From Chryseosolibacter histidini (lineage in GTDB: Bacteria; Bacteroidota; Bacteroidia; Cytophagales; Cyclobacteriaceae), in assembly GCF_018598225.1 (NCBI RefSeq), contig NZ_JAHESF010000007.1, forward strand, positions 68,554 through 132,553: 64,000 nucleotides of DNA, in the 5' to 3' direction. Made by a program: the position numbers and the translations under genes. Positions 4 to 39,908 of this stretch are shown piece by piece. The notes beneath the pieces are model-generated. The model was given only the letters and a program-made list of their open reading frames with translations, ran no database searches and was not told the origin of the DNA. Positions within the stretch are counted from its first letter, which is position 1. Each line of letters begins with the position of its first letter.

Positions 4-1905
4 GTGAAGCAGGAAGACAAACCTAAAAAACAATACACCATTGCCCAGTTCATGGACATTGTTCAGCTCAGCGGAGGCGCCTTCTCGCCTGACGATTCGA
101 AGATCCTCGTCAGCACCAAAGAAACCGGTATCTTCAACGCCTTCGAGATCGACCTCAAATCGGGCGAAAAGAAACAGCTCACCACTTCCACTGACGATGC
201 CATTTTCGCCAGATCCTATTTTCCAGGTGATGATCGTGTGATCTATACGAGTGACAAGGGCGGTAATGAGATCACGCATATCTATGTGCGCAACAACAAT
301 GGCTCAACGGTAGACCTCATCCAGGACACCACAGCGAAAGCACAATACTACGGCTGGAGCCATGACAGAAAAAACCTTTATTACCTGTCGAACAGTCGTG
401 ACAAACGTTACTTCGATCTGCTCAGCGTGCGGGTGGAAGGTGCGCCGAAAGAAGGAAACGTGTACCCTTCTACCATGGTTTACCAGAATAACGAAGGGCT
501 CGATGTGGCGGCGATCTCTGACGATGGCCGCTACGTTGCGCTGACCAAAACCATTACCACCAATAACTCAGATATGTACCTGCTCGATACCCAGAGCAAA
601 AAGACAAAACACCTGTCGGCACACACCGGCAACGCGCAGTACGTGCCGCAATACTTCAGCCTGGATGGCAAAACACTCTACTGTCTTACGGATGAAGGCA
701 GCGAGTACATGTATCTGTCGGGTTATGATGTGGCCAGCGGAGAAAAGAAAAAAATAGAAGAAGCGCCGTGGGATCTGATGACTGCCTATCTCTCGCACAA
801 CGGCAAGTATCGCGTGGTGGCCATCAACAACGACGCACGCACCGAGATCAGGATCTATGACGAATCCAACGGCGGCCAGCAGGTGAAAGTGGATGGTTTG
901 CCCGACGGCGACATCACGGGTGTGAACATTTCCGACAGCGAGAAATGGATGTCGTTCTATGTCAGCAGCTCGAAATCGCCGGCCAACCTTTTCGTTTATA
1001 ATTTTGAAACGAAGGAGGTAAAGCAGCTGACCAATACAATGTCGGCCGACATTGACCAGAATGATCTTGTTGCAGGTGAAGTGATCCGTTACAAATCATT
1101 CGACGGCATGGAGATCCCTGCCCTGCTCTACAAGCCCAGGGGACTGAAAGCCGGAGAGAAAGTGCCGGCACTGCTCTTCATTCACGGAGGACCCGGCGGA
1201 CAAACCAGGCTGAACTACTCCCCGGTGATCCAGCACCTGGTGAATCACAACTATGTGATCCTGGCGGTGAATAACCGGGGAAGCTCCGGTTACGGAAAAA
1301 CTTTTTTTGCTGCCGACGATCGCAAGCACGGCGACGCAGACCTGAAGGATTGTGTGGAATCGAAAAAGTTCCTGGCTACACTGGATTACGTAGACATGAG
1401 CAAGGTGGGCATTATGGGCGGCAGCTACGGCGGATACATGGTAATGGCTGCATTGGCTTTTGCGCCTGAAGAATTCAACGTAGGTGTCAACATCTACGGC
1501 GTCACCAACTGGCTGCGCACCTTAAAAAGCATTCCGCCGTGGTGGACCTCATTCCGTGAAGCATTGTATGCCGAGCTTGGCGATCCTGCAAAAGATTCAG
1601 TAGCCCTGTATAACAAATCGCCGCTGTTCCATGCGAAGAAGATCACCAAACCCTTTATTGTGCTGCAGGGAAGCAACGACCCGCGCGTGCTCCAGGTTGA
1701 ATCGGATGAAATAGTAGCGGCAGCCAAAGCCAACGGTGTGCCTGTTGATTATATCGTATTTCCTGATGAGGGCCATGGATTCCTGAAAAAGGAAAACAAC
1801 ATCAAAGCCTCGAAAGCGATATTGAAATTCCTGGATATCCATCTGAAAGGTCTGCCGGAAGATCAGGCCGGAGAAAAACCAGCAACGGCAGCCAATCAGC
1901 CATAG
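4..1905 (+). CDS. S9 family serine peptidase (prolyl oligopeptidase / dipeptidyl-aminopeptidase type), possibly 5'-truncated by window edge
   Basis: 633 aa ORF. Nucleophile elbow GGSYGGYM, His motif PDEGHGF near the C-terminus, and an N-terminal beta-propeller-like region, all typical of the S9 family. The ORF starts at window position 4. Confidence 0.8.
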   Translation: MKQEDKPKKQYTIAQFMDIVQLSGGAFSPDDSKILVSTKETGIFNAFEIDLKSGEKKQLTTSTDDAIFARSYFPGDDRVIYTSDKGGNEITHIYVRNNNGSTVDLIQDTTAKAQYYGWSHDRKNLYYLSNSRDKRYFDLLSVRVEGAPKEGNVYPSTMVYQNNEGLDVAAISDDGRYVALTKTITTNNSDMYLLDTQSKKTKHLSAHTGNAQYVPQYFSLDGKTLYCLTDEGSEYMYLSGYDVASGEKKKIEEAPWDLMTAYLSHNGKYRVVAINNDARTEIRIYDESNGGQQVKVDGLPDGDITGVNISDSEKWMSFYVSSSKSPANLFVYNFETKEVKQLTNTMSADIDQNDLVAGEVIRYKSFDGMEIPALLYKPRGLKAGEKVPALLFIHGGPGGQTRLNYSPVIQHLVNHNYVILAVNNRGSSGYGKTFFAADDRKHGDADLKDCVESKKFLATLDYVDMSKVGIMGGSYGGYMVMAALAFAPEEFNVGVNIYGVTNWLRTLKSIPPWWTSFREALYAELGDPAKDSVALYNKSPLFHAKKITKPFIVLQGSNDPRVLQVESDEIVAAAKANGVPVDYIVFPDEGHGFLKKENNIKASKAILKFLDIHLKGLPEDQAGEKPATAANQP

Positions 1906-1924
1906 ATTTTTTAATCCAATTTAT

Positions 1925-1965
1925 AAGCTGTTTCAAGGTTAGTCCCTGAAACAGCTTTTTTGTTT
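1925..1965. terminator. Rho-independent terminator hairpin (agctgtttca...tgaaacagct) plus T-run between convergent genes
   Basis: 10-bp perfect inverted repeat followed by tttttgtttt. It lies directly after the S9 peptidase stop and before the 3' end of the minus-strand VOC/GNAT gene. Confidence 0.6.
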
Positions 1966-2018
1966 TATACCCGGCTTTGATTGAGGTCATTCCACCCAGG
2001 AGTGTGCGCATTGAATAG

Positions 2019-2852
2019 CTATCTCTTTTCACTGCGGATGATCTCCCGCACCATGCCAAATGCTGGCGTAAATCCAAACTGCTTGTAAAACGGAGCGAGA
2101 CTATCGGGCGTAATAAGCGTCACCAGTGCATTGTCAGGAGCGTTTGCTTCCAGCCAGCGTGTAAGCTCCTTCATTAATCCGGCACCTACCTGTTGATGCT
2201 GCCAGGCGGGATGCACCATAACGTCTTTTACATAGTAGAAGCTGACGTGATCGCCTAACAAGAGAGCACATCCTATTACCTCACCCGTATCCTTGTTCTC
2301 TGCCACCGCAGCGGTCACTACCGGCGCCAGCAGCAACGCAGCTTTTTCTTTGTCGGCATTGGCGATGTGGTACACCGCTGAAGCCAGGTGCCTATATTCA
2401 TTCGGGGTGGGGATCCTGTTAACAATTCTTACAACCTCCGGCAGGCCAGGCGCGCTTCGCTCTCGTTCCGAAACAGGAGCACCGGCGAAATGGACATAAT
2501 AGCCATTAATGTCACGAACGGTATATTGGGCAAGACCCCATGGCTTGTTCTCTAATGGGGCAACGATCTCCGCGCGCTTCTGCTGATGAAGCTTGTAAAG
2601 GTGCTCCACATACCGCACACGGGTAAACACTGAATGTCCTGCTGACACTGAGGCGAGCTCGCTGTTCAACGTGAATTGTACCGACGTTCCGTGCCATGAA
2701 ACACTTCCATGGGTTGGCGGGGTGCCCCAGGTCCATTTTTCAGGAAAACCCAATACCTCATGCCAATATGAAACTGTCTCGACTATATCGCGCACGGCAA
2801 GAACAGGCTCGATCTGCAATACGGAAGGTTGAATGTCATTGCGTTCTATCAT
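2019..2852 (-). CDS. Fusion protein: N-terminal VOC/glyoxalase-bleomycin-resistance fold plus C-terminal GNAT N-acetyltransferase
   Basis: 277 aa. N-terminal half is glyoxalase/VOC-like (VLAVRDIVETVSYWHEVLGF...YYVHFA). C-terminal half has GNAT motifs (VIGCALLLGDHVSFYYVKDVMVHPAWQHQQVGAGLM...FYKQFGF). Confidence 0.7.
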   Translation of the reverse strand: MIERNDIQPSVLQIEPVLAVRDIVETVSYWHEVLGFPEKWTWGTPPTHGSVSWHGTSVQFTLNSELASVSAGHSVFTRVRYVEHLYKLHQQKRAEIVAPLENKPWGLAQYTVRDINGYYVHFAGAPVSERERSAPGLPEVVRIVNRIPTPNEYRHLASAVYHIANADKEKAALLLAPVVTAAVAENKDTGEVIGCALLLGDHVSFYYVKDVMVHPAWQHQQVGAGLMKELTRWLEANAPDNALVTLITPDSLAPFYKQFGFTPAFGMVREIIRSEKR

Positions 2853-2963
2853 AATGAAAGTTTGACATTTTAAGTTTAAAATTAAAGTCGCAACAATTGA
2901 AATTTTGTCAGTCCTGATATTTCTTCGTTACCTGATCCTGCCATTTTTTTCGTTGCTTCTGAC

Positions 2964-3302
2964 ATGGAGTTTCTTTTGATAAGCGATCTCCGAACCCAAC
3001 GGCATATACTTATGAATTCTACTGTAGAGGAAAAGGATCACCTTAACGGTACACTTGAATTGATAGGAAAAAAACTTTTAGACCTTAGAAAAAAGAAGGG
3101 ATATTCGAGCCATGCCGAGTTCGCTTCCGATTTTGGACTGCCCCGCATCCAATACTGGCGAATGGAAAAAGGCAAAGCGAACGTTACGCTGAAATCGCTG
3201 GGCAAGGTGCTTCACATCCATGGGCTTACCCTGGAGGAATTTTTCATGCAGATCAGGAAGGAAAGAAAAAAAGAAACCCGCATGGAACCCGGGCGGAATT
3301 AA
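2964..3302 (+). CDS. XRE-family helix-turn-helix transcriptional regulator (alternative start at 3012)
   Basis: ELIGKKLLDLRKKKGYSSHAEFASDFGLPRIQYWRMEKGKANVTLKSLGKVLHIHGLTLEEFF is a classic Cro/C1-type HTH. Confidence 0.65.
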   Translation: MEFLLISDLRTQRHILMNSTVEEKDHLNGTLELIGKKLLDLRKKKGYSSHAEFASDFGLPRIQYWRMEKGKANVTLKSLGKVLHIHGLTLEEFFMQIRKERKKETRMEPGRN

Positions 3303-29949: not shown

Positions 29950-30687
29950 TTACGCCATCGCAGAACGGAACTCAGTTCGCTCTGCCCAGGCTAGTTTGTC
30001 TGGCATTTCTTGCGAATTGAATTCCAGGTGGATCACGCGCCTGTGTTTCAGGCTTGTTGCTTTTGACGACGCATGAAGAAGCAGTGGCTTCATGATCTGG
30101 ATGCCACACGCCGGAACTTCACAGACATAAGGGATACTGTTTTGCGTGATGAGGGCAATCTCATCATCCGACAACTTTTTATTGTGCGAGCCAGGGATCA
30201 CTTTCAGGGCACCATTCGTCTCATCGGTATCGTCAAGGTGAATTCTCACGGTAACAGTATTTTTCAGGTATTCATCGGGAGGCACTACGCCATGCACACC
30301 GAACTTCTTCGTCCATCCCGTAAAACCGTTGATTTCAATTTTTTCGTTCACATTGATCACAATGTCCTGGTGCCAGGTAACATACCAGTTCGACTCCTGT
30401 GTTTTATCGAAGTAAATGGCTTTTGTAAGGAACAGGGCCGGATCGATGGTGTCCAGGATCTTCAGCAGATTGGAATTGAGGGCCAACGACTTCAATCCTG
30501 GTATTTCCTGCAAAAGGTTTCTGATGGCATAAGTGTCCTCCGATTTGGCTTCACAGTACGCCTGCAGCATGGACTTCATCTGGTCCAACTCATTCTGTGT
30601 AAAGATATGATGAAGGATGCAAAAACCCTTATCGGTCAAGTGTTGAATATTACTAAGGAGTGCAGTATTGTCCCTGTTAACAGTCAT
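29950..30687 (-). CDS. Phytanoyl-CoA dioxygenase (PhyH)-family Fe(II)/2-oxoglutarate oxygenase
   Basis: WHQDIV...IHLDDTDETNGALKVIPGSH facial-triad motif arrangement typical of PhyH. Confidence 0.7.
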   Translation of the reverse strand: MTVNRDNTALLSNIQHLTDKGFCILHHIFTQNELDQMKSMLQAYCEAKSEDTYAIRNLLQEIPGLKSLALNSNLLKILDTIDPALFLTKAIYFDKTQESNWYVTWHQDIVINVNEKIEINGFTGWTKKFGVHGVVPPDEYLKNTVTVRIHLDDTDETNGALKVIPGSHNKKLSDDEIALITQNSIPYVCEVPACGIQIMKPLLLHASSKATSLKHRRVIHLEFNSQEMPDKLAWAERTEFRSAMA

Positions 30688-30973
30688 GGAGAAAAATTTC
30701 TTAAAAAAACGTAAAAAAATTCACTACGCAAAAAGGCTGCGCAGTGAACCGGCAATTTTGAGGCGTGATTTATATGGAACTGATAAACAACGATTTTAAT
30801 AAGATATCATTCGCCAGTTGGCGGATCAAAGATCTTCCCTTACGACTATGTCGGAAAGGAAGCGCGGAAAAGACAACAAGCAAAGACCTGATGAGCGTTT
30901 CTGTATGGCGCCATAGTGTTGTATTGCAATGCGGTGCAACATGCTGCTTGGTTTGATGTTGTTTTCCATTAAT

Positions 30974-31118
30974 CTGCGGGTCGAAGGTTCGATTCCTTCC
31001 CGGTCGAGGCCGGTAGCTCAGTTTGGAAGAGCAGCAGGATGGGTCACGGGTTCGAATCCCGTTCACACTTCAAATGTGATAGCTCAGTTTGGTAGAGCAC
31101 ATGGCTTTTAACCATGAG
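30974..31118 (+). other. Mosaic of tRNA-derived fragments with no intact tRNA: a tRNA 3' piece, a chimeric tRNA-like module with acceptor end, D-arm and T-arm but no anticodon arm, and a 5' two-thirds of tRNA-Lys(TTT) lacking a T-arm
   Basis: 30974-31007 reads GGGTCGAAGGTTCGATTCCTTCCCGGTCGA (T-arm plus 3' acceptor). 31008-31070 reads GGCCGGTAGCTCAGTTTGGAAGAGC...ACGGGTTCGAATCCCGTTCACACTT (D-arm and T-arm only). 31073-31118 reads AATGTGATAGCTCAGTTTGGTAGAGCACATGGCTTTTAACCATGAG (D-arm plus anticodon arm with TTT anticodon, then no T-arm). Confidence 0.6.
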
Positions 31119-31450
31119 AATGAAGCTGACCGCTTCTAAAAAAGGTTACCTCTCGAAAGCAGTTCGGGGGCGCATCGGGCCTGCATGTGAAACATTCCTC
31201 GGGATGTTAGCCTGAAGGCCAGTTTGCTGAAAACCAGTATGTGTAAGGATACCGGATAGCAAGTCGGTTTGCTTTTCTGCATGCCAGCCTGTCTTCTTAA
31301 GGAGACCCTCTCCCCAGACAAGACAGGATAAGCGCAGAAAACCAAACTAAATGCAGCTGTCCTCAATTACACTTCCGTTTTCGGGAGATGATGTGTTTGT
31401 GAACTGCTTTCTTTTAAAATGACTTTATTAACGATTAATTTTTTTTTACA

Positions 31451-32551
31451 ATGAAAAGGATCAGGATCAACACCGGAAAAATTGGCTTGGTGTTCAGGAA
31501 TGGTAACTACAAGAACATGGTTACAGAAGGTGCGTATTGGTTATTCCCGAATGAGGATTCATTCGAGTACGATATGACAAAACCGTTCCATCCTTCCGTT
31601 GACCTGAACATCCTGTTGCGCGATGAGCAGCTGGCAAATATGCTGACGATCGTAGAAGTACGGGATAACGAAATTGTGCTGCAGTACGAAAACGGAAACT
31701 TTAAAACCGTACTGGCACCGGGAAGATACGCTTACTGGAAAGGCGTGACCGATTACACTTTCATCAAAGCAGACCTGAGCAAGATCGAGGTTACTGAAAA
31801 CATCGACAAGTATACGATCATGCGAAAAGAGGTATTGCCTTACGTCAGGGTGTTTACGGTGGAGTCTTTCGAAAAAGGTATCCTGCTGATCGATGGTAAA
31901 TTCTCCAAAGTGCTCGACACAGGCGTGTACTACTTCTGGAAAAACCCTGTCGTTGTCTCTGTGCTGAAAGCAGACCTGAGGCAACTGCAGCTCGAGGTTT
32001 CCGGACAGGAGATCCTGACGAAAGACAAAGCTGCCCTGCGGATCAACTTCTTCACCCAATACAAAGTGGTTGACATTATCAAAGCTTTGATCGACAACAA
32101 GGACTACGATAAACAACTGTATATCCTGATGCAGCTGGCGCTGCGGGAGTTCATCGGCACACTGTCGCTGGATGAATTGCTGGAGAAAAAAGAATCCATT
32201 TCCGCCTATGTGCTGGCCACGCTGAAAGATAAAGCTTACAACCTGGGTGTGGAGATCCGGGACTGCGGCGTCAGGGACATCATCCTGCCGGGTGAAGTGA
32301 AAGAGATCATGAACCAGGTGCTGGTGGCCCAGAAAAAAGCTGAAGCCAACGTGATCATGAGGCGTGAAGAAACGGCTTCCACCAGGAGCCTGCTGAACAC
32401 TGCCAAACTGATGGAAGAAAACTCCATGCTCTTCAAATTGAAAGAAATGGAGTACGTGGAGAAGATCGCCGACAAGATCAACAGTATCTCGTTATCAGGA
32501 GGTAACCAGGTTATTGATCAGCTGAAGGAGATCTTTGTTCCTAAAAAATGA
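31451..32551 (+). CDS. Cytoplasmic SPFH/band-7 (stomatin/slipin-like) protein with duplicated N-terminal beta-rich module
   Basis: C-terminal SPFH core LALREFIGTLSLDELLEKKESISAYVLATLKDKAYNLGVEIRDCGVRDIILPGEVKEIMNQVLVAQKKAEANVIMRRE. No TM helix. N-terminal region has two similar segments (GKIGLVFRNGNYKNMVTEGAYW / GILLIDGKFSKVLDTGVYYFW). Confidence 0.75.
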   Translation: MKRIRINTGKIGLVFRNGNYKNMVTEGAYWLFPNEDSFEYDMTKPFHPSVDLNILLRDEQLANMLTIVEVRDNEIVLQYENGNFKTVLAPGRYAYWKGVTDYTFIKADLSKIEVTENIDKYTIMRKEVLPYVRVFTVESFEKGILLIDGKFSKVLDTGVYYFWKNPVVVSVLKADLRQLQLEVSGQEILTKDKAALRINFFTQYKVVDIIKALIDNKDYDKQLYILMQLALREFIGTLSLDELLEKKESISAYVLATLKDKAYNLGVEIRDCGVRDIILPGEVKEIMNQVLVAQKKAEANVIMRREETASTRSLLNTAKLMEENSMLFKLKEMEYVEKIADKINSISLSGGNQVIDQLKEIFVPKK

Positions 32552-32812
32552 GCCACCCTCCTTCGCTACCCTCGCGTTGATGCCATCACAAGCTTCGGCG
32601 GGCAAGGGAGCCAGGAGGAGCACGTCCTGGGCATTTCCAGACGGTTCTTCGAGGCCTGGTTCTTTTGCCACACTAAGGGCACGAAAAAGACACAAAGGGA
32701 TTTCTCTTTGTGGTGCTTTTGTGGTCTTGGTGCCTTCGTGGCTTTAAAATTGTGTGCAAACAAGACAGTACACATATTGTTATAATTTGTGTTATTATAA
32801 AGAACAATTGAA

Positions 32813-34219
32813 ATGAACTTAACAGGTAACGATCTTAAAAATATAGGATTTGCGGAAGGTAAGGCGTTGGGATTGGCGCTTCAGATCATGGAGCAGCAAT
32901 ATCAGACGATGAGCACCGGGGATAAGCTGGTGCTGCTGAAAGGAGTTTTTGAAGATCCATCTGCTTATGTCAACGATGTAAAGCTTTCGGCATTGGCGCA
33001 TGAGTTGCTTAAACCGGGAGACGATACCATTCCATTGAATGTGGCTGGTAAACCTTATCAGATCTATGGCGCAGATGCCATTGAACAGGGTGCGTTGAGC
33101 CAGATGGAAACGGCCATGAAGCTGCCCGTGACGGTAGCCGGCGCTTTGATGCCGGACGCGCACCAGGGTTACGGCCTTCCTATCGGCGGGGTGCTTGCCA
33201 CACAAAATGCAGTGATCCCATATGGTGTCGGTGTCGATATCGGATGCCGGATGTGCATGACGGTATATAACCTGCCGGTGACAGCGCTCACTGAAAAGAA
33301 AGAGGAGTTTAAAAAGCTGCTCGTCAACAACACCAGGTTCGGTATGGCTACTTTCAACAAACCAAAAGATCACGAGATCTTTGAAAGAAAAGCGTTCAGC
33401 GAGCTTGGCATTGCCCGTGAAATGAAAGACCGCGCATGGCAGCAGATCGGATCATCAGGCGGTGGCAATCACTTTGTAGAGTTCGGTATTGTTGAGATCC
33501 TCGATCCGGTGAACGAATTTAACCTGGCGCCTGGACGTTACGTAGCGCTGCTCTCGCATTCAGGCTCCCGTGGACTGGGTGCCAACATTGCCCGTCATTA
33601 TACGAAGATCGCTATGGACACCTGCAAACTTCCGCAAGAAGCAAAACACCTTGCGTGGCTTGACCTCGATACCGAAGCGGGACAGGAGTACTGGCTTGCC
33701 ATGAACCTTGCCGGCGATTATGCCTCGGCCTGTCATCACCAGATCCATGAGCGGATGGCCATCGGGTTGCGTGAGACACCCCTCGCCATGATCGAGAACC
33801 ACCATAACTTTGCATGGAAGGAGAAAGATGCCGCAGGAAACGAGCTGATCGTTCACCGCAAAGGTGCAACACCCGCGGGAAAAGGTGTGCTCGGAATTAT
33901 TCCGGGATCGATGGCCACACCCGGCTTTATTGTCCGTGGCAAAGGACTTGCCGAGTCGATCAATTCTGCATCGCACGGCGCGGGCAGAACCATGTCGCGA
34001 ACGAAGGCCAAACAAACCATCCTGCAAGGTCATGTGAACAAGTTCCTGAAAGAAGCCGGAGTCGAGCTGATCGGCTCGGGTCTCGACGAAGCGCCCATGG
34101 CATACAAGGACATTCACCAGGTGATGGGTTACCAGCAATCACTCGTTGGAGTGCTCGGCTCGTTCATGCCAAAAATTGTGAGAATGTGTGGTGATGCGAA
34201 GTTCCAAGAGGTGGACTAA
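32813..34219 (+). CDS. rtcB: RtcB-family RNA 3'-phosphate/2',3'-cyclic-phosphate ligase (archaeo-eukaryotic type), paralog 1, with ~90 aa N-terminal extension
   Basis: MPDAHQGYGLPIGGV, GVDIGCRM, GGGNHFVEFG, NHHNFAWKE and HRKGATPA motifs. The metal-binding and GMP-His architecture is diagnostic of RtcB. Confidence 0.9.
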   Translation: MNLTGNDLKNIGFAEGKALGLALQIMEQQYQTMSTGDKLVLLKGVFEDPSAYVNDVKLSALAHELLKPGDDTIPLNVAGKPYQIYGADAIEQGALSQMETAMKLPVTVAGALMPDAHQGYGLPIGGVLATQNAVIPYGVGVDIGCRMCMTVYNLPVTALTEKKEEFKKLLVNNTRFGMATFNKPKDHEIFERKAFSELGIAREMKDRAWQQIGSSGGGNHFVEFGIVEILDPVNEFNLAPGRYVALLSHSGSRGLGANIARHYTKIAMDTCKLPQEAKHLAWLDLDTEAGQEYWLAMNLAGDYASACHHQIHERMAIGLRETPLAMIENHHNFAWKEKDAAGNELIVHRKGATPAGKGVLGIIPGSMATPGFIVRGKGLAESINSASHGAGRTMSRTKAKQTILQGHVNKFLKEAGVELIGSGLDEAPMAYKDIHQVMGYQQSLVGVLGSFMPKIVRMCGDAKFQEVD

Positions 34220-34248: not shown

Positions 34249-35463
34249 TCAGGATTTCCGGCTTTTTACCAGCATCCAAAAGAAAAATGAGAGCAAGATA
34301 AAAGCCGAAACGCTGTAGATACGAAAACGTACAAATGAAACCTCTGCGCCACGTGTTTTCATACCACTGTGACTCCATGCAATAAAGGCATCGGCCAGGG
34401 GTATCACGCCGAAGAAGTATTTTTTCGTATCTGCAGTTTGCCACGGAAAGGCCATGGCTTCAACAGTACCCCGTATGCTGGCACTCAGATCCTGCTCGCC
34501 ATACAATGATAAGGTCTGCATGCCTACAATGGTTGCGGCGCCACCAAAGCCAAAGATCACAGGACCGGAATCTATATCACCCATCCCTGATACACCTTTG
34601 GGGTACTCTCTAACGCCCGTAAGACCCAACCAGCTATCGATGAACTTCTCTTTAAAAAGTGCGAACTGCTCCCGGGCGAGTGGCGCATCGATCTCACGCA
34701 AAAAGATCAGCATCAGCGCCAGCGATGATCCTCTTGCAGGCTCGCGCGCGCGGCCATCGGCGGGAAGTACCGCGTGCGGGATCATTCCATCTGCGTCGAC
34801 ATGTTTTCTTACTTCCGTCACCCAATGATCAATCACGTCTTTGTATTGCGGCGTGAAAAGCTTATCGTGTAACGAAAGTGATGCAACGCACACCATAACA
34901 TCTGCAGGCCATGCGCTTCCATAATAGCTTACCGGATAAGTTCTTTGTTGAATCGCTTTCGCGATCGCAGCACATTGCTGTTTGAACTGATCCATTTCTT
35001 TTTTATCCCTGATGTCAGCATCTTCAATTTTCAGCTTTGAACCCAGCACATACGAGCTCCAGCCGTTGTAGAAAGATCCGTAGGGCAAAGAAAGTTCATC
35101 GTTGAAGGGCGCTCTGCCTGTTGGCGAATTAATTTTCAACAACGCTTTGTGCATCTCGGCCCGGCCTTCGCTCACGAAGCTGTTGTTAGCACGATGCTCT
35201 AAAAATGAAGACCATGTCAGGGCATATATGGCGTTAAAAAATACATACCCTTCCGGGAAAATATGTTGCATGTCAGTATCCGCGTGCTGATCTAATGCTT
35301 TCTTCAGTCCCCGTAATTCTTTGACAAGCGTTTGATCAACTTTATCATCACCACTTATTATTGATTCAGAAGTGTTGTTGATGTTCACATTCATTGTCAC
35401 CACTAGCGCCATGAGGACCATCAGCGGCAAAGCGATCATCAGTTTAAAAATTCCCTTCAGCAT
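34249..35463 (-). CDS. Hypothetical membrane-anchored protein (N-terminal signal anchor and C-terminal TM helix), opposite strand between the two rtcB genes
   Basis: 404 aa with hydrophobic N-terminus MIALPLMVLMALVVT and C-terminal AFILLSFFFWMLV. No recognisable catalytic motif. Confidence 0.5.
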   Translation of the reverse strand: MLKGIFKLMIALPLMVLMALVVTMNVNINNTSESIISGDDKVDQTLVKELRGLKKALDQHADTDMQHIFPEGYVFFNAIYALTWSSFLEHRANNSFVSEGRAEMHKALLKINSPTGRAPFNDELSLPYGSFYNGWSSYVLGSKLKIEDADIRDKKEMDQFKQQCAAIAKAIQQRTYPVSYYGSAWPADVMVCVASLSLHDKLFTPQYKDVIDHWVTEVRKHVDADGMIPHAVLPADGRAREPARGSSLALMLIFLREIDAPLAREQFALFKEKFIDSWLGLTGVREYPKGVSGMGDIDSGPVIFGFGGAATIVGMQTLSLYGEQDLSASIRGTVEAMAFPWQTADTKKYFFGVIPLADAFIAWSHSGMKTRGAEVSFVRFRIYSVSAFILLSFFFWMLVKSRKS

Positions 35464-35801: not shown

Positions 35802-37208
35802 ATGGGCAAACATAAACTCAATATTAAAGACCTCTCTCCTATCAGCTTTCCCTCTGAGGTGGCCAAAAGCCTGGCATTGAACCTTATGAACAGGCATTTC
35901 AAACACACACCCAATGATGAGAAGCTGGCGTTGATCACAAAAGTGCTCGCAGACCCTGATGCATACATCACTCATGATACACTGAGTTTGCTGGCACATA
36001 AGCTTATTTCCAAATCTGTTCTTGAAACTTTTAAAACGTATGAACTCGACGATGAACCCAAACACTTTGACATTTTCGGCAGCAAGCACATTGAAGTAAA
36101 TGCCGTCCAACAAATGGAACTAGCCATGCGACTTCCCATTGCCGTAAAAGGTGCGCTCATGCCCGATGCACATCAGGGTTACGGACTGCCTATCGGCGGC
36201 GTGCTGGCCACAAAGAATGCCGTGATCCCTTACGGTGTCGGGATGGACATTGGATGCAGGATGGCCCTCAGCATACTCGATGTTCCCGCCAGTTACGTGG
36301 AGCATCATGCCTATGAGATCAAACAGGCGCTGGGGGATCATACACATTTTGGCAATGACGGTGGCCTCGATACCAGGCAGGAGCATCCGGTGCTCGATCA
36401 TCCGGATTTTCAGCAAACTGATCTTCTCAGAAGATTGCATGGAAAAGCTGCAAGACAGCTCGGCAGCTCGGGCTCGGGAAATCACTTTGTTGAGCTCGGC
36501 ATCATCGAGGTTGGTGACGACAATACACTGGGAATTGAATCCGGCGCGTATGCTGCCATACTATCGCATTCCGGCTCCCGAAGCCTGGGTGCCAACATCG
36601 CTCAGCATTATACGGATATTGCGATGAACAAATGCAGACTTCCGCGGGAGGCAAAACACCTCGCATGGTTAACGCTGGATACTGAAGAGGGCCAGGCTTA
36701 CTGGTTATCCATGAATCTTGCGGGCGAATATGCAAAGGCCTGCCATGACCAGATCCATAAAAACCTTTGCAACGCCCTGGGCGCTGGCATCGTGAAGCGT
36801 GTTGAGAACCATCACAACTTCGCCTGGAAGGAAACATTAGCGGACGGGAATGAATACATCGTCCACCGGAAGGGTGCTACGCCGGCCGCGAAAGGTGTGT
36901 TTGGCATAATCCCCGGAAGCATGACAGCGCCCGGATATGTGGTAAGCGGGTTGGGAAACGAATTGTCACTGAACTCTGCTGCCCATGGCGCGGGAAGAAA
37001 AATGTCGAGGTTCAAAGCTAAAAATTCCATCACGATGAGCAGCCTGAAAAAGTTGCTGCAAAGCGAGAAGGTAACACTGATCGGCGGTAGTACAGAAGAG
37101 GCGCCAGCGGCTTACAAGGATATCGAGCTGATCATGCACAACCAGACAACGCTGGTAAATATTGAAGGCAAATTCCATCCCCGCATTGTGAGGATGGCTA
37201 AAGATTAA
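35802..37208 (+). CDS. rtcB: RtcB-family RNA ligase, paralog 2 (about 60% identical to paralog 1, with the same N-terminal extension)
   Basis: MPDAHQGYGLPIGGV, GMDIGCRM, GSGNHFVELG, NHHNFAWKE and HRKGATPAAKGV motifs. N-terminal extension LALITKVLADPDAYITHDTLSLLAHKLI parallels LVLLKGVFEDPSAYVNDVKLSALAHELL of paralog 1. Confidence 0.9.
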   Translation: MGKHKLNIKDLSPISFPSEVAKSLALNLMNRHFKHTPNDEKLALITKVLADPDAYITHDTLSLLAHKLISKSVLETFKTYELDDEPKHFDIFGSKHIEVNAVQQMELAMRLPIAVKGALMPDAHQGYGLPIGGVLATKNAVIPYGVGMDIGCRMALSILDVPASYVEHHAYEIKQALGDHTHFGNDGGLDTRQEHPVLDHPDFQQTDLLRRLHGKAARQLGSSGSGNHFVELGIIEVGDDNTLGIESGAYAAILSHSGSRSLGANIAQHYTDIAMNKCRLPREAKHLAWLTLDTEEGQAYWLSMNLAGEYAKACHDQIHKNLCNALGAGIVKRVENHHNFAWKETLADGNEYIVHRKGATPAAKGVFGIIPGSMTAPGYVVSGLGNELSLNSAAHGAGRKMSRFKAKNSITMSSLKKLLQSEKVTLIGGSTEEAPAAYKDIELIMHNQTTLVNIEGKFHPRIVRMAKD

Positions 37209-37214
37209 AAAACT

Positions 37215-39296
37215 ATGGAAACGAATATTTCACATTCAGAACTTATTCTCAGGAAGCAGAAGCTGGAGCAGGTAAAGTCGGAGCTCAAGGCGAAGTTTCT
37301 TGGCCTTGACGGGATCATCGACGAAGTGACCTCATTGATCATGCCATGGTATCTTTTTCCGGAAGCACAGCTGAGACCCACCATCATCAATCTGTGGGGT
37401 CTGACCGGGTCGGGTAAAACTGCACTGGTGCAGGCTTTCGTAGAACAGCTGGAGTACAGGAAGTTTTACAGTCACATCGATATGGGTGAGTTTGAATCCG
37501 ACTCGGCTACGTGGATCAAAAACATTCTGACAGACGACCTGGATTTCTTCCATGAAAAACCGGCGCTGATCTGCCTGGACGAATTTCAATTCGCCAGAAC
37601 CCTGGATGGCAATAACAACGAGCTTGGAAAAGATAAATTGAGGGTGATCTGGGACCTGCTTGACTCCGGGAAGATCGAGTATATTCCGGGACAAGGCACC
37701 TACTACCTTTTCAGGGCCGAGAACTGCCTGCGAAGAATCGATAAGGCGATCAAGGAAGGTGTAACGCTGGCCAATGGACGGATAGAATATGGCCTCGACC
37801 GTTTCTCAACCATCTTCAGTGGTTTCTTCTTCGACTATAACGACAGGAGCCATGCAACCCAGGATGAGAACTACTTTATGTCCGACGATTTTGTGAACGG
37901 CATGTTCTACCTGTTTGATGATGACGAGTGTTCAAGGGATCATATCAAGGAAATGGTGAAGGCGTCAACGCTTGATGCGCTCAAAATACTCATAACAAAA
38001 GGAATGCATACGAGGCCAGCCACCAAAACGCTGGACCTTTCTCACTGCCTGATCTTCGTATTGGGAAACCTGGATGAGGCTTATACCATGAGCCACAACA
38101 TGAATCCTGATATCAGCGCGGATGAGTTTCACGAACAGACCTCGAAGATCACCATCGCGGACATCAAGCGGGCACTGCGCAAGCGATTCAGACCTGAGCA
38201 GATCGCGCGGTTGGGAAACAACCACGTTATCTATAAGTCGTTCAACAATGCACAGTTCAGGTTACTGATCAGGCAGGAGCTGCAGCGGATCGCTGACTTT
38301 GTTCTTCAGCAGTTTCGCTGGAAAGTCTCTTTCGACGAATCGGTGGTGAATATCGTTTATGCCGAAGGTGTATTTCCAGCGCAAGGCACGAGGCCTGTGT
38401 TGACAACGGTGAAAAACCTCATCGAGTCAAGGATCAGCAGCGTGGTGGTCTCCATTCTCGAGTATCAGCTGAAGATCGACGAGATCGAATGGCGGTTCGA
38501 CAACGGTAACTTCGAATATACACTGAAAGATGCAAACGGTGTTGCCGTTCTGACAGTGTCTGACCCGGGCAGGCTGAAGCTCGAGGACCTCCGGAAAAGC
38601 ATCGATCCGGAAATTCAGGCGCACACTGCCGTGCACGAAGCGGGCCACGCTGTGCTGGCAGCCCTTACGTTAAGGATCGTGCCGACAGTTGTTGTGTCGC
38701 GGACCGCCTCCGATATGGAAGGTTTTTGCCTGGTGAATTTTCCCAAAGGTCCTATGACAAGGCAATCTTTGAAGAAAGACATCGTGATCACACTTGGCGG
38801 ACTTGTAGCTGAAAGAATGATCTTCGGCGAAGACATGACATCCTCGGGCGTATGCAGTGATATCGAAGAAGCTTCGAGGTTGGCCAACAAAGCTATCAGG
38901 GAGTATGGTATGGGGTCAGACCCGCTTCGGCTGGCGTTGCAGGCACAAAATGATGATGCCTTCCTGGTTACTGATAAGTACACAACAGAAGCCATCAGGA
39001 TCATTAAGGAATGCGAAGCCGAGGCTGAAAGGATCCTGACCAATAACAAGCTCCTGTTGCTGAAAATGTCTGAATACCTGACAACACATTCAAGAATGGA
39101 AGAGCCGATGATCGAGACGTATGTAAAAAGATACGGACAGGAAGAATGGATCCAGACCCAAGGGCTGATCAAAAATGACCAGTACTATAAATTCAACACA
39201 ATATTGCAGGGTCAGATCAAGGATCTGCAAAACGAATCTGTAGATTCGGAGATCGAGCGGATCATTTCCACGGTCAGAGAAGAGAGCACTGTTTAA
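37215..39296 (+). CDS. Soluble AAA+/Clp-like P-loop ATPase fused to FtsH-type M41 zinc-metalloprotease domain
   Basis: Walker A GLTGSGKT and Walker B LICLDEF. Sensor-2/lid-like RPEQIARLGNNHVIYKSF. C-terminal HEAGHAV zinc motif followed by LGGLVAERMIFGED, which matches FtsH HEAGHA...LGGRAAEE. No TM helices. The start is 7 bp after rtcB paralog 2. Confidence 0.7.
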   Translation: METNISHSELILRKQKLEQVKSELKAKFLGLDGIIDEVTSLIMPWYLFPEAQLRPTIINLWGLTGSGKTALVQAFVEQLEYRKFYSHIDMGEFESDSATWIKNILTDDLDFFHEKPALICLDEFQFARTLDGNNNELGKDKLRVIWDLLDSGKIEYIPGQGTYYLFRAENCLRRIDKAIKEGVTLANGRIEYGLDRFSTIFSGFFFDYNDRSHATQDENYFMSDDFVNGMFYLFDDDECSRDHIKEMVKASTLDALKILITKGMHTRPATKTLDLSHCLIFVLGNLDEAYTMSHNMNPDISADEFHEQTSKITIADIKRALRKRFRPEQIARLGNNHVIYKSFNNAQFRLLIRQELQRIADFVLQQFRWKVSFDESVVNIVYAEGVFPAQGTRPVLTTVKNLIESRISSVVVSILEYQLKIDEIEWRFDNGNFEYTLKDANGVAVLTVSDPGRLKLEDLRKSIDPEIQAHTAVHEAGHAVLAALTLRIVPTVVVSRTASDMEGFCLVNFPKGPMTRQSLKKDIVITLGGLVAERMIFGEDMTSSGVCSDIEEASRLANKAIREYGMGSDPLRLALQAQNDDAFLVTDKYTTEAIRIIKECEAEAERILTNNKLLLLKMSEYLTTHSRMEEPMIETYVKRYGQEEWIQTQGLIKNDQYYKFNTILQGQIKDLQNESVDSEIERIISTVREESTV

Positions 39297-39356: not shown

Positions 39357-39908
39357 ATGATCAACGAAAAAGAAAATAAACGGATCAGCAAGTTCCTGAG
39401 TCTCGTGCTGCGACACAAGCCGGAGACGGTCCATATCGAACTGGACGGAAACGGCTGGACGGATGTGGATGTCCTGATCGAACGTATGCGCGAACATCAG
39501 TTTAACATCAGCCGGGAGATCCTGGCGCACGTTGTGAGCACGAATGACAAAAGCCGGTTTGCCTTCAGTGACGATCTCACCCGGATCCGGGCGAGCCAGG
39601 GTCATTCTGTTGACATCGACCTGGGCTACGAAGCACAACAGCCACCACCTGTTCTGTATCATGGCACAACGGAGAATGCCCTTGCTTCGATCCTGAAAAC
39701 GGGATTGGAAAAACGGGACAGGCACCATGTTCATCTCAGCACGGAGATCAAAACCGCCACTGCCGTGGGCCAGCGATACGGGAAGCCAACCATCCTTCAG
39801 GTGGCAGCCGGTGAAATGTTCCAGGATGGTTACCGGTTTTACCGAACGGATAACAACGTGTGGCTCACAGATCACGTACCGGTGAAGTACTTTACGGTTA
39901 TTGAATAG
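39357..39908 (+). CDS. kptA: RNA 2'-phosphotransferase Tpt1/KptA
   Basis: KFLSLVLRHKPE, LYHGTTENALASILKTGL and RHHVHLS motifs with catalytic Arg/His residues, typical of Tpt1/KptA. 183 aa. Confidence 0.85.
   Translation: MINEKENKRISKFLSLVLRHKPETVHIELDGNGWTDVDVLIERMREHQFNISREILAHVVSTNDKSRFAFSDDLTRIRASQGHSVDIDLGYEAQQPPPVLYHGTTENALASILKTGLEKRDRHHVHLSTEIKTATAVGQRYGKPTILQVAAGEMFQDGYRFYRTDNNVWLTDHVPVKYFTVIE

Follow-up and report, generated by a model that had tools for sequence, protein, structure and literature searches.

Why should a bacterial genome keep the parts of transfer RNA (tRNA) genes, in the wrong order, ahead of the genes of an RNA-repair system? The question is raised by a stretch of 64,000 nucleotides (nt) of Chryseosolibacter histidini (contig NZ_JAHESF010000007.1, positions 68,554-132,553, forward strand), which we call the window and whose own numbering is used here. 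Between positions 30974 and 31148 it contains T-arms, D-arms and an anticodon arm, followed downstream by genes for a slipin, a protein of the SPFH/Band-7 family, and for the RNA ligase RtcB. An initial annotation of the window described this region as a mosaic of tRNA fragments and offered two readings, either nested attachment-site (att) scars that would mark a genomic island or a functional tRNA mimic of the kind formed by Y-RNA-like RNAs beside rtcB. Here we describe two regular tRNA-like modules in a circularly permuted frame, joined to an anticodon arm and a pseudoknot, and conserved with compensatory changes in 60 other genomes. Judged from these comparisons, the region is very probably a tRNA-mimic RNA maintained by selection.

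A precedent for such mimicry is YrlA, whose effector domain has a tRNA-like fold in which the acceptor stem is closed and the anticodon loop is absent (Wang et al. 2018, 10.1101/312249). YrlA is encoded beside rsr and rtcB, in some cases in several copies (Chen et al. 2014; Wang et al. 2018, 10.1101/312249), and occasionally adjoins a Band-7 gene; it resembles circularly permuted tRNAs and may have originated from dimeric pre-tRNAs (Wang et al. 2018, 10.1101/312249). Its tRNA-like domain might inhibit an anticodon nuclease (Hughes et al. 2020). A further RNA, b7a-tRNA, was predicted next to Band-7 and RtcB by Burroughs and Aravind 2016, as relayed by Wang et al. 2018 (10.1101/312249), in whose account the prediction was then still unvalidated. 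Literature searches on b7a-tRNA, on slipin with RtcB and on permuted bacterial tRNA brought up only Wang 2018, Chen 2014, Hughes 2020 and the Anabaena TrcR paper. Studies of what tRNA-like Y RNAs do beside RtcB have been confined to Ro60-containing Proteobacteria, Deinococcus and mycobacteria.

tRNA-like modules upstream of slipin and rtcB

ARAGORN predicts no tRNA anywhere in the window, and the initial annotation was right that no intact cloverleaf can be assembled here; the check for a normal tRNA that had escaped the eye came out negative. At gathering level Rfam reports a single match in the window, to part of a tRNA (31079-31137, 33.5 bits, model positions 7-64); the match has no acceptor stem and is made up of the second D-arm, the anticodon arm and, taken as a 'T-arm', the first stem of the pseudoknot. 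A relaxed search with Rfam 15 across positions 30600-31500 (901 nt, matches listed down to E <= 10) gave YrlA (RF02553) as the best match, at two adjacent places: 30975-31036 (46.8 bits, E 3.7e-9, model positions 23-85) and 31042-31098 (38.5 bits, E 9.5e-7, model positions 27-81). Both alignments are restricted to the tRNA-like core of the model and score below its gathering threshold of 69 bits, and the Ro60-binding stem of YrlA (model positions 1-22 and 86-114) is matched in neither. A covariance model, R1, seeded with the first module from ten loci, scores 75.7 bits on module 1 of the window and 52.2 bits on module 2, which was outside the seed. The YrlA E-values and the R1 score of the unseeded module place the tRNA-like signal far above chance.

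Read in the permuted frame, positions 30974-31148 fall into four parts: module 1, module 2, an anticodon arm and a pseudoknot (Table 1). Module 1 is closed by a stem of 4 base pairs (bp), CUGC (30974-77) with GCAG (31034-37), which replaces the anticodon stem; within it follow a variable-loop-like GGGUC (30978-82), the T-arm, a closed acceptor hairpin CCGG-UCGAGG-CCGG (31000-31013), UA (31014-15), the D-arm and a single A (31033). Beyond a 3-nt linker, module 2 repeats this order with GGGUC (31041-45), its T-arm (as RNA, ACGGG-UUCGAAU-CCCGU), a closed acceptor hairpin UCACA-CUUCAAA-UGUGA (31063-31079), UA (31080-81), the D-arm and A26 (31099), and then runs straight into a complete anticodon arm.

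The two T-arms, two D-arms and the anticodon arm had all been correctly located in the initial annotation; it is their parsing that needs revision. Every 3' acceptor strand finds its partner in the 5' acceptor strand that comes next; the pieces delimited in a cloverleaf frame are slices of two permuted units, and the middle piece (31008-31070), formerly singled out as the mimic, gives way to modules at 30974-31037 and 31041-31116. The last piece, described as a tRNA-Lys lacking a T-arm, does possess the acceptor, D-arm and anticodon arm, but a hairpin of T-arm size (31122-31136), the first stem of the pseudoknot, follows it. What had looked like a mosaic of scars is a regular succession, twice over, of T-arm, closed acceptor hairpin and D-arm.

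Structural conservation among Bacteroidota

A scan with one genome per species produced 80 related Bacteroidota loci, from Chryseosolibacter, Ohtaekwangia, Chryseolinea, Roseivirga, Fulvivirga, Chitinophagaceae, Aquimarina, Carboxylicivirga and others, with cultured carriers that include Chryseolinea serpens DSM 24574, Roseivirga seohaensis SW-152, Fulvivirga marina, Aquimarina mytili and a Runella sp. In the window the modules lie ~350-480 nt upstream of slipin. Among the 79 sources with sufficient DNA upstream of slipin, 76 contain a full-length R1 match, always on the slipin strand and ~350-500 nt upstream of the slipin start, and in most of these a second, weaker match adjoins it at the place of module 2. 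Where the sequence extends far enough to tell (72 loci), slipin is followed by a same-strand RtcB gene in 49. The Rfam YrlA model itself matches at the equivalent position, with 31-45 bits, in all of L003-L010. The part from module 2 to the pseudoknot was analysed in 52 curated loci by rule-based parsing and permutation tests: module 2 is present in 41, and in the other 11 module 1 is followed directly by a conserved hairpin, AUGGA-CUNNNAA-UCCAU. A MAFFT alignment of 25 sequences over the same part was ragged in the acceptor loop, D-loop and tail and was discarded as unusable for column-wise structure.

Covariation supports the permuted frame helix by helix. In the 61 best R1 matches, 98.0% of pair cells are standard pairs (77% after shuffling, 43-56% when the partner is slid), and 15 of the 19 pairs are changed on both sides, amounting to 262 cells. 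All four helices of module 1, the best-conserved part, are supported, including the 4-bp closing stem, whose first pair is CG in 35 sequences, UA in 18, GC in 4 and AU in 2. The same stem has changed at short range: in L083, a contig that shares synteny and architecture with the window and has a leader of 94% identity to it, CUGC/GCAG is replaced by the compensated UUGC/GCAA. Across the phylum the permuted fold is under strong structural selection, and 60 other genomes keep it through compensatory changes. The earlier reading of a Y-RNA-like tRNA mimic beside rtcB is accordingly supported by the YrlA matches, the covariation and the fixed place before slipin and RtcB, except in the unit that was chosen for it.

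Additional R1 matches of 37-44 bits were seen downstream of slipin/RtcB in Chitinophagaceae-type loci (L061, 6290-6353 and 6724-6789; L064, 6690-6771), and may be further YrlA-like modules or tRNA-tRNA junctions.

A permuted tRNA body and its anticodon arm

Module 2 was re-joined in silico by cutting in the loop of the acceptor hairpin and fusing the anticodon arm, at its 3' end, to the 5 nt that precede the T-stem. ARAGORN calls a tRNA in 37 of 38 loci after this operation, in none of the 38 in native order, and in 45-58% of chimeras made between the modules of different loci. In the window the product is a clean 76-nt tRNA-Lys(UUU) with one A.C mismatch in the acceptor stem, which bears out the earlier observation that the 3' portion of a tRNA-Lys lies here upstream of its 5' portion. 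Module 2 with its arm is a complete circularly permuted tRNA body, open only at the variable-loop position and not at the acceptor end. Across loci the re-joined identities include Lys, Leu, Ile, Asn, Met, Thr, His, Arg, Tyr, Phe, Asp, Gln and others, and Leu anticodons coincide with Leu-type D-arms, an agreement which suggests that the 5' halves were exchanged with, or modelled on, genuine tRNAs.

The acceptor loops of module 2 measure 1-13 nt (median 4, often GAAA) on stems of 4-7 bp, with no discriminator plus CCA. Since the acceptor ends are sealed by short loops, in relatives often GNRA tetraloops, we infer that the RNA cannot be aminoacylated and would present only tRNA-shaped surfaces and an anticodon loop; sealed stems that lack discriminator and CCA favour a stable, non-chargeable mimic over a precursor of a working tRNA.

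At the position of the anticodon arm, a 5-bp stem and 7-nt loop are kept across loci, with U33 (loop position 2) in 59 of 74, a purine at 37 (loop position 6) in 63 of 74 and A at loop position 7 in 51 of 74. The triplet takes 36 different values, at least 20 different complementary sequences form the stem, and the anticodon differs even between close relatives. Two anticodon-type hairpins stand in tandem between module 2 and the pseudoknot in L014, L016, L026, L027, L035, L054, L062, L069 and L078, namely the module's own anticodon stem-loop (ASL) and the free-standing AUGGA-CUNNNAA-UCCAU, and in L035 an ASL-like hairpin is also inserted within the acceptor loop; these arrangements suggest that the ASL is itself a functional unit.

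The H-type pseudoknot follows closely. Its stem 1 pairs GAAG (31122-25) with CUUC (31133-36) around the loop CUGACCG (31126-32), and past an A-rich linker, UAAAAAA (31137-43), stem 2 pairs the loop nucleotides UGACC (31127-31) with GGUUA (31144-48). In the 52 curated loci, with 42 unique loops, the longest complement between loop and tail averages 5.14 nt; when tails are permuted among loci the mean is 3.49 +/- 0.13 nt, and none of 5000 permutations reaches 5.14. A preQ1-I reading of the pseudoknot was rejected, with no Rfam match at E <= 10 and a loop that is too short.

A structured leader of about 600 nucleotides

From alignments of related leaders, the modules are predicted to be the core of a conserved, multi-domain structured RNA of ~600 nt, on the plus strand before the slipin-RtcB cluster. 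A short hairpin ahead of the 5' domain shows compensatory changes at alignment columns 60-67 with 82-89. The 5' domain is closed by a helix of GGAAAAGACA (30866-30875) with ATGTTGTTTTCC (30956-30967), a closing pair also given as GGAAAAGACA/AUGUUGUUUUCC; it includes the near-invariant stretches AAGACCUGAUGAGCGUUUC, GCGCCAUAGUG and AUGCUGCUU, and its identity between the window and L001/L003 is near 100%. The 3' domain is closed by a perfect 11-bp long-range helix (inverted repeat I3), GAAAGCAGUUC (31155-65) with GAACUGCUUUC (31401-11), differs by compensatory changes from L001 (GUAG/CUAC) and from L083 (UCCGC/GCGGA), and ends 40 nt ahead of the slipin ATG. Neither domain matches any Rfam 15 family at E <= 10, and a scan of viral contigs with the 5'-domain motif gave no match. 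With modules and flanking domains alike escaping Rfam 15, such loci are now annotated as empty intergenic sequence or, occasionally, as a partial tRNA.

Three other structures were considered and set aside. A hammerhead reading of CUGAUGAG at ~30883 has no GAAA/stem III arrangement and no Rfam match, and two long-range pairings, I2 (31054-67 with 31398-411) and I5 (30937-48 with 31030-41), are unconserved in relatives and were taken as chance.

At 31251-31280, within the 3' domain, a hairpin ACCGG-AUAGCAAG-UCGGU is followed by the U-rich UUUGCUUUUCUGC, which also pairs with GCAGAAAACCAAAC (31334-47), a pairing compensated in L083. The layout of UUUGCUUUUCUGC and GCAGAAAACCAAAC resembles a terminator/anti-terminator pair and could conceivably act as a regulatory switch. 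On the minus strand, a strong terminator-like hairpin (30718-30750, 14 pairs and then a U-run), kept in L001 and L083, sits between the start of a divergent PhyH gene (30687) and the leader RNA; it may be an insulator or an attenuator of that gene.

Table 1. Positions of the leader RNA elements and downstream genes in the window, and of the tRNA-Tyr-like gene in related loci
Feature	Position	Strand	Basis or details
Leader hairpin CTTCC ... GGAAG, with inner GAC-TAT-GTC hairpin	30834-30862	+	RNAalifold, 11 related leaders
5' domain, multi-helix junction	30866-30967	+	RNAalifold, 11 leaders: 45 pairs, 17 compensatory
tRNA-like module 1, YrlA type	30974-31037	+	Rfam YrlA, R1, covariation
T-arm 1	30983-30999	+	GAAGG-TTCGATT-CCTTC
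D-arm 1	31016-31032	+	
tRNA-like module 2	31041-31099 (with anticodon arm, 31041-31116)	+	Rfam YrlA, R1
T-arm 2	31046-31062	+	ACGGG-TTCGAAT-CCCGT
D-arm 2	31082-31098	+	
Anticodon stem-loop CAUGG-CUUUUAA-CCAUG, anticodon UUU	31100-31116	+	Joins D-arm 2 as in a true tRNA
H-type pseudoknot	31122-31148	+	Loop-tail covariation
3' domain, 257 nt	31155-31411	+	RNAalifold, 10 leaders: 73 pairs, 29 compensatory
Slipin (SPFH/Band-7), 366 aa	31451-32551	+	Pfam Band_7, E 4.8e-34
RtcB RNA ligase, copy 1	32813-34219	+	Pfam RtcB, E 1.4e-82
404-aa open reading frame (ORF) between the RtcB genes	34249-35463	-	No Pfam, NCBIfam or PADLOC match
RtcB, copy 2	35802-37208	+	Pfam/NCBIfam
FtsH-like AAA+/M41 protease	37215-39296	+	Pfam/NCBIfam
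RNA 2'-phosphotransferase KptA/Tpt1	39357-39908	+	Pfam/NCBIfam
tRNA-Tyr-like gene of relatives	L001 3232-3317; L003 2259-2344; L013 2887-2971; L011 2884-2966; 20+ other loci		

Function and alternative explanations

Taken as a whole, the locus is best explained by a non-chargeable tRNA mimic that would serve, independently of Ro, as the RNA partner of a Band-7/RtcB repair system, an explanation for which we see the chances as evenly balanced. Under this explanation the RNA would be transcribed together with the operon or immediately ahead of it, and would be to the Band-7/RtcB system what Y RNA is to Ro60, in parallel also to the role proposed for b7a-tRNA. Its tRNA shape might then be a handle or bait that gathers enzymes directed at anticodon loops (RtcB, KptA); instead of this, or besides it, the RNA might titrate tRNA-cutting toxins. 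This specific mode of action is put forward tentatively, with slightly less than even confidence.

Several considerations weigh against a Ro-independent partner RNA. The minimum free energy fold of 30968-31150 as a single sequence is a non-tRNA structure (z = -0.98), uninformative in either direction, so all of the structural support is comparative. An anticodon that varies is equally compatible with neutral drift. The RNA may act only in cis, as a leader; no plus-strand terminator was found between it and slipin, and there was no convincing promoter in a sigma-70 scan, a model which does not apply to Bacteroidota promoters.

Action in cis is the basis of the alternative that stands up best, although we consider it unlikely. 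Here the leader would be a damage sensor whose tRNA shape baits anticodon nucleases: cutting at 31105-31111 would detach the upstream domains from the slipin-rtcB mRNA and thereby alter how stable it is or how well it is translated, with resealing by RtcB as feedback. The modules do lie within a continuous conserved leader that runs, with no intervening terminator, to 40 nt before the slipin ATG, the anticodon loop keeps its U-turn signature while the triplet differs by lineage, free-standing AUGGA-CUNNNAA-UCCAU hairpins occur in many loci, and cleaved tRNAs activate RtcB operons elsewhere (Hughes 2020). However, no expression platform has been identified, the large 3' domain resembles a static closed structure, the anticodon varies among close relatives with no known matching toxin, and the best-conserved part, module 1, has no anticodon loop at all.

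Rather less probable is that the whole ~600-nt RNA represents an undescribed class of large bacterial RNA, a sentinel of tRNA damage in which Ro60 is uninvolved. If this were true, invading anticodon nucleases would cut the exposed, lineage-specific loop, and the cut together with its resealing by RtcB would control or organise the response of slipin, RtcB and KptA.

The structures might also serve only the processing or stability of a polycistronic transcript (tRNA array, leader and slipin), the tRNA-like folds and the pseudoknot being punctuation for RNase P/Z or blocks to exonucleases with no function in trans. Many relatives do have tRNA genes on the same strand just upstream, the tRNA-Tyr-like gene abuts the 5' domain, tRNA-like structures are RNase P-dependent processing signals in other RNAs (Wang 2018, 10.1101/312249), and the pseudoknot, with its A-rich linker, could plausibly stall exonucleases. 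A simple signal, however, would need neither two modules, nor a canonical anticodon loop, nor ~350 nt of extra covarying structure, and closed acceptor stems are poor substrates of RNase P (Wang 2018, 10.1101/312249); we give this explanation little weight.

It is very unlikely that module 2 is a silent, circularly permuted tRNA gene, excised, circularised by RtcB and opened at the acceptor loop by RNase P/Z to supply a spare tRNA, as in Cyanidioschyzon. The almost uniform success of re-joining, the fit between D-arm type and anticodon for Leu and the adjoining RNA ligase gene are what such a gene would show, and the possibility was raised by Wang et al. 2018 (10.1101/312249) for YrlA, which in Mycobacterium smegmatis is cut by RNase P. 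The tiny acceptor loops without discriminator and CCA, on stems often of only 4-6 bp, are hard to reconcile with it, however; Leu-type modules have no long variable arm, there is no bulge-helix-bulge (BHB) motif and no known bacterial splicing endonuclease, and module 1 can never yield a tRNA.

More improbable still is a canonical, Ro60-dependent YrlA with rsr elsewhere in the genome, outside the window. YrlA is indeed the sole matching Rfam family, and in L009 the alignment extends over the full length of the model, at only 45 bits; but the Ro60-binding stem remains unmatched, with the 4-bp closing helix alone conserved, and scores are well under the gathering threshold. Domain scans covered every window ORF of at least 400 amino acids (aa) and the larger ORFs between ~16.5 and 48.5 kb; none of these contains a Ro60/TROVE domain, in line with the initial annotation, and in 76 loci it is slipin, not rsr, that the element goes with. 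Finally, non-functional debris at an island boundary, whether nested att scars or the remains of a tandem tRNA array, is almost certainly the wrong explanation: genuine tRNA arrays do occur near related loci, and a permuted unit can arise by tandem duplication of one tRNA (our own reasoning; Wang 2018, 10.1101/312249), but the arrangement is syntenic and fixed in position, every permuted-frame helix has compensatory substitutions across 60 genomes and between near-identical relatives, the scanned ORFs include no integrase or transposase domain, GC content is flat (0.45-0.53 across 18-50 kb) and no further copy of the tRNA-like fragments was found in the window, so that covariation and the absence of an island signature together contradict it.

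Relation to known tRNA-like RNAs

Among known RNAs, YrlA is the nearest to these modules. Shared are the order of T-arm, loop-closed acceptor stem and D-arm, with a helix closing at the anticodon-stem position, the same T-loop and D-arm sequences, the rtcB neighbour and the side-by-side copies. YrlA also binds Ro60 and is modified by tRNA enzymes (TruB, Dus). Unlike YrlA, the element in the window has no long terminal Ro60-binding stem and no nearby rsr, and it scores below 69 bits; its second module bears a complete anticodon stem-loop, and both modules are internal to a structured RNA of ~600 nt and are followed by a conserved pseudoknot. An out-of-frame unit taken from a tandem repeat of one tRNA gives exactly the YrlA-type fold, in agreement with the origin suggested by Wang et al., whose remark on YrlA beside Band-7 probably covers the Bacteroidota leader family. 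What this family adds is a YrlA-type mimic kept in dozens of Bacteroidota genomes without the Ro60-binding stem, and with no rsr nearby in the single 64-kb window examined; it separates the function of a tRNA mimic from tethering to Ro and ties it to an SPFH/Band-7 gene. In one form the acceptor end is sealed and a full anticodon loop lies exposed, which makes these RNAs candidates for decoy, sensor or scaffold roles in tRNA repair.

The use of an L-shaped tRNA fold for something other than decoding is shared with the tRNA-like domain of transfer-messenger RNA (tmRNA), including its two-piece permuted genes, with the 3' tRNA-like structure of turnip yellow mosaic virus (TYMV) and with mascRNA; in TYMV and tmRNA the tRNA-like parts are likewise combined with pseudoknots. 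Those RNAs retain a free CCA end and undergo aminoacylation or RNase P cleavage, whereas here the acceptor is sealed and the anticodon loop exposed. The pseudoknot has the layout of known H-type pseudoknots (preQ1-I and SAM-II riboswitches, luteoviral frameshift elements), with a stem of 4-5 bp and a 7-nt loop, ~5 nt of which pair with the tail past an A-rich linker of 5-7 nt. The likeness is one of layout only: no Rfam riboswitch matches at E <= 10, and with 0-2 unpaired loop nucleotides there is no obvious ligand pocket.

Circularly permuted tRNA genes are reportedly present in Cyanidioschyzon merolae, other algae and Thermofilum, and an RtcB-type ligase is the enzyme that permuted tRNA genes need. 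In common with them, the element has its 3' half upstream, a loop-closed acceptor and a cloverleaf that is restored by re-permutation. It differs in being bacterial, in its break at the variable loop, in lacking a BHB motif, and in its tiny acceptor loops without discriminator or CCA.

With b7a-tRNA the element shares the SPFH/Band-7 and RtcB context and the proposed position of a tRNA-like partner of a scaffold protein in RNA repair. That RNA is said to resemble an authentic tRNA closely. The window, in contrast, holds permuted modules only, and it is a cloverleaf tRNA-Tyr(GUA)-like gene of related loci that fits this description and is probably the b7a-tRNA (Band-7-associated tRNA) of Burroughs and Aravind 2016. 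Already predicted, then, as far as the 2016 work is relayed by Wang et al. 2018, is a tRNA-like RNA beside Band-7/RtcB; the tandem modules, the anticodon arm, the pseudoknot and the flanking domains are described here.

Neighbouring genes

The slipin has 7964 relatives, some of them named 'slipin family protein' at source and assigned, where named, to Cyclobacteriaceae or Chryseolinea; the exact protein of the window has no record, and one that is 99% identical, P0001, leads to locus L083. Slipin and the first RtcB gene are separated by 262 nt (32552-32812). A hairpin resembling a terminator (32691-32712) and a site resembling a promoter (32769-32798) fall in this interval, so transcription of RtcB may be partly separate from that of slipin; in the equivalent gap of L001 there is a 97-aa ORF. 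The 404-aa ORF between the two RtcB genes has no homologue within the 3-kb flanks of 81 related loci, and PADLOC found no defence-system match among the eight locus proteins scanned.

Divergently upstream, the window encodes a 245-aa PhyH protein (29950-30687, minus strand) and a 179-aa ORF without family match, as does L083. PhyH lies upstream in 12 of 81 loci; in L001 the divergent gene (1368-3095, minus strand) encodes a 575-aa fusion of WYL, WCX and PhyH, possibly a ligand-sensing regulator.

The tRNA-Tyr(GUA)-like gene, of class II, has an unusual D-arm (UGCGCCAAnGUUGGAGAGUUGGG) and a 3' end CCCCAC, and 27-29 of 81 loci carry it on the same strand. Most carriers have it upstream of the leader, and in several it abuts the 5' domain; nhmmer found no match to it in the window, and L005, L006, L008 and L009 also lack it. 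L011, L013 and L015, where the YrlA-like leader is missing, carry the gene ~30 nt upstream of slipin, which suggests that leader modules and tRNA-Tyr-like gene are interchangeable RNA partners.

Ordinary-looking tRNA genes are also common around slipin. Same-strand arrays of up to 18-19 genes surround it in L032 (1396-5664) and L038 (1280-5635), and many other loci have tRNA genes 600-1500 nt upstream; the types include Gln, Asp, Asn, Lys, Phe, Glu, Ile(UAU), Leu(UAG) and Tyr. These arrays recall stress-induced tRNA operons such as the 26-tRNA trn operon of Anabaena, which translational stress derepresses along with a slipin gene and rtcB (PMC10272220).

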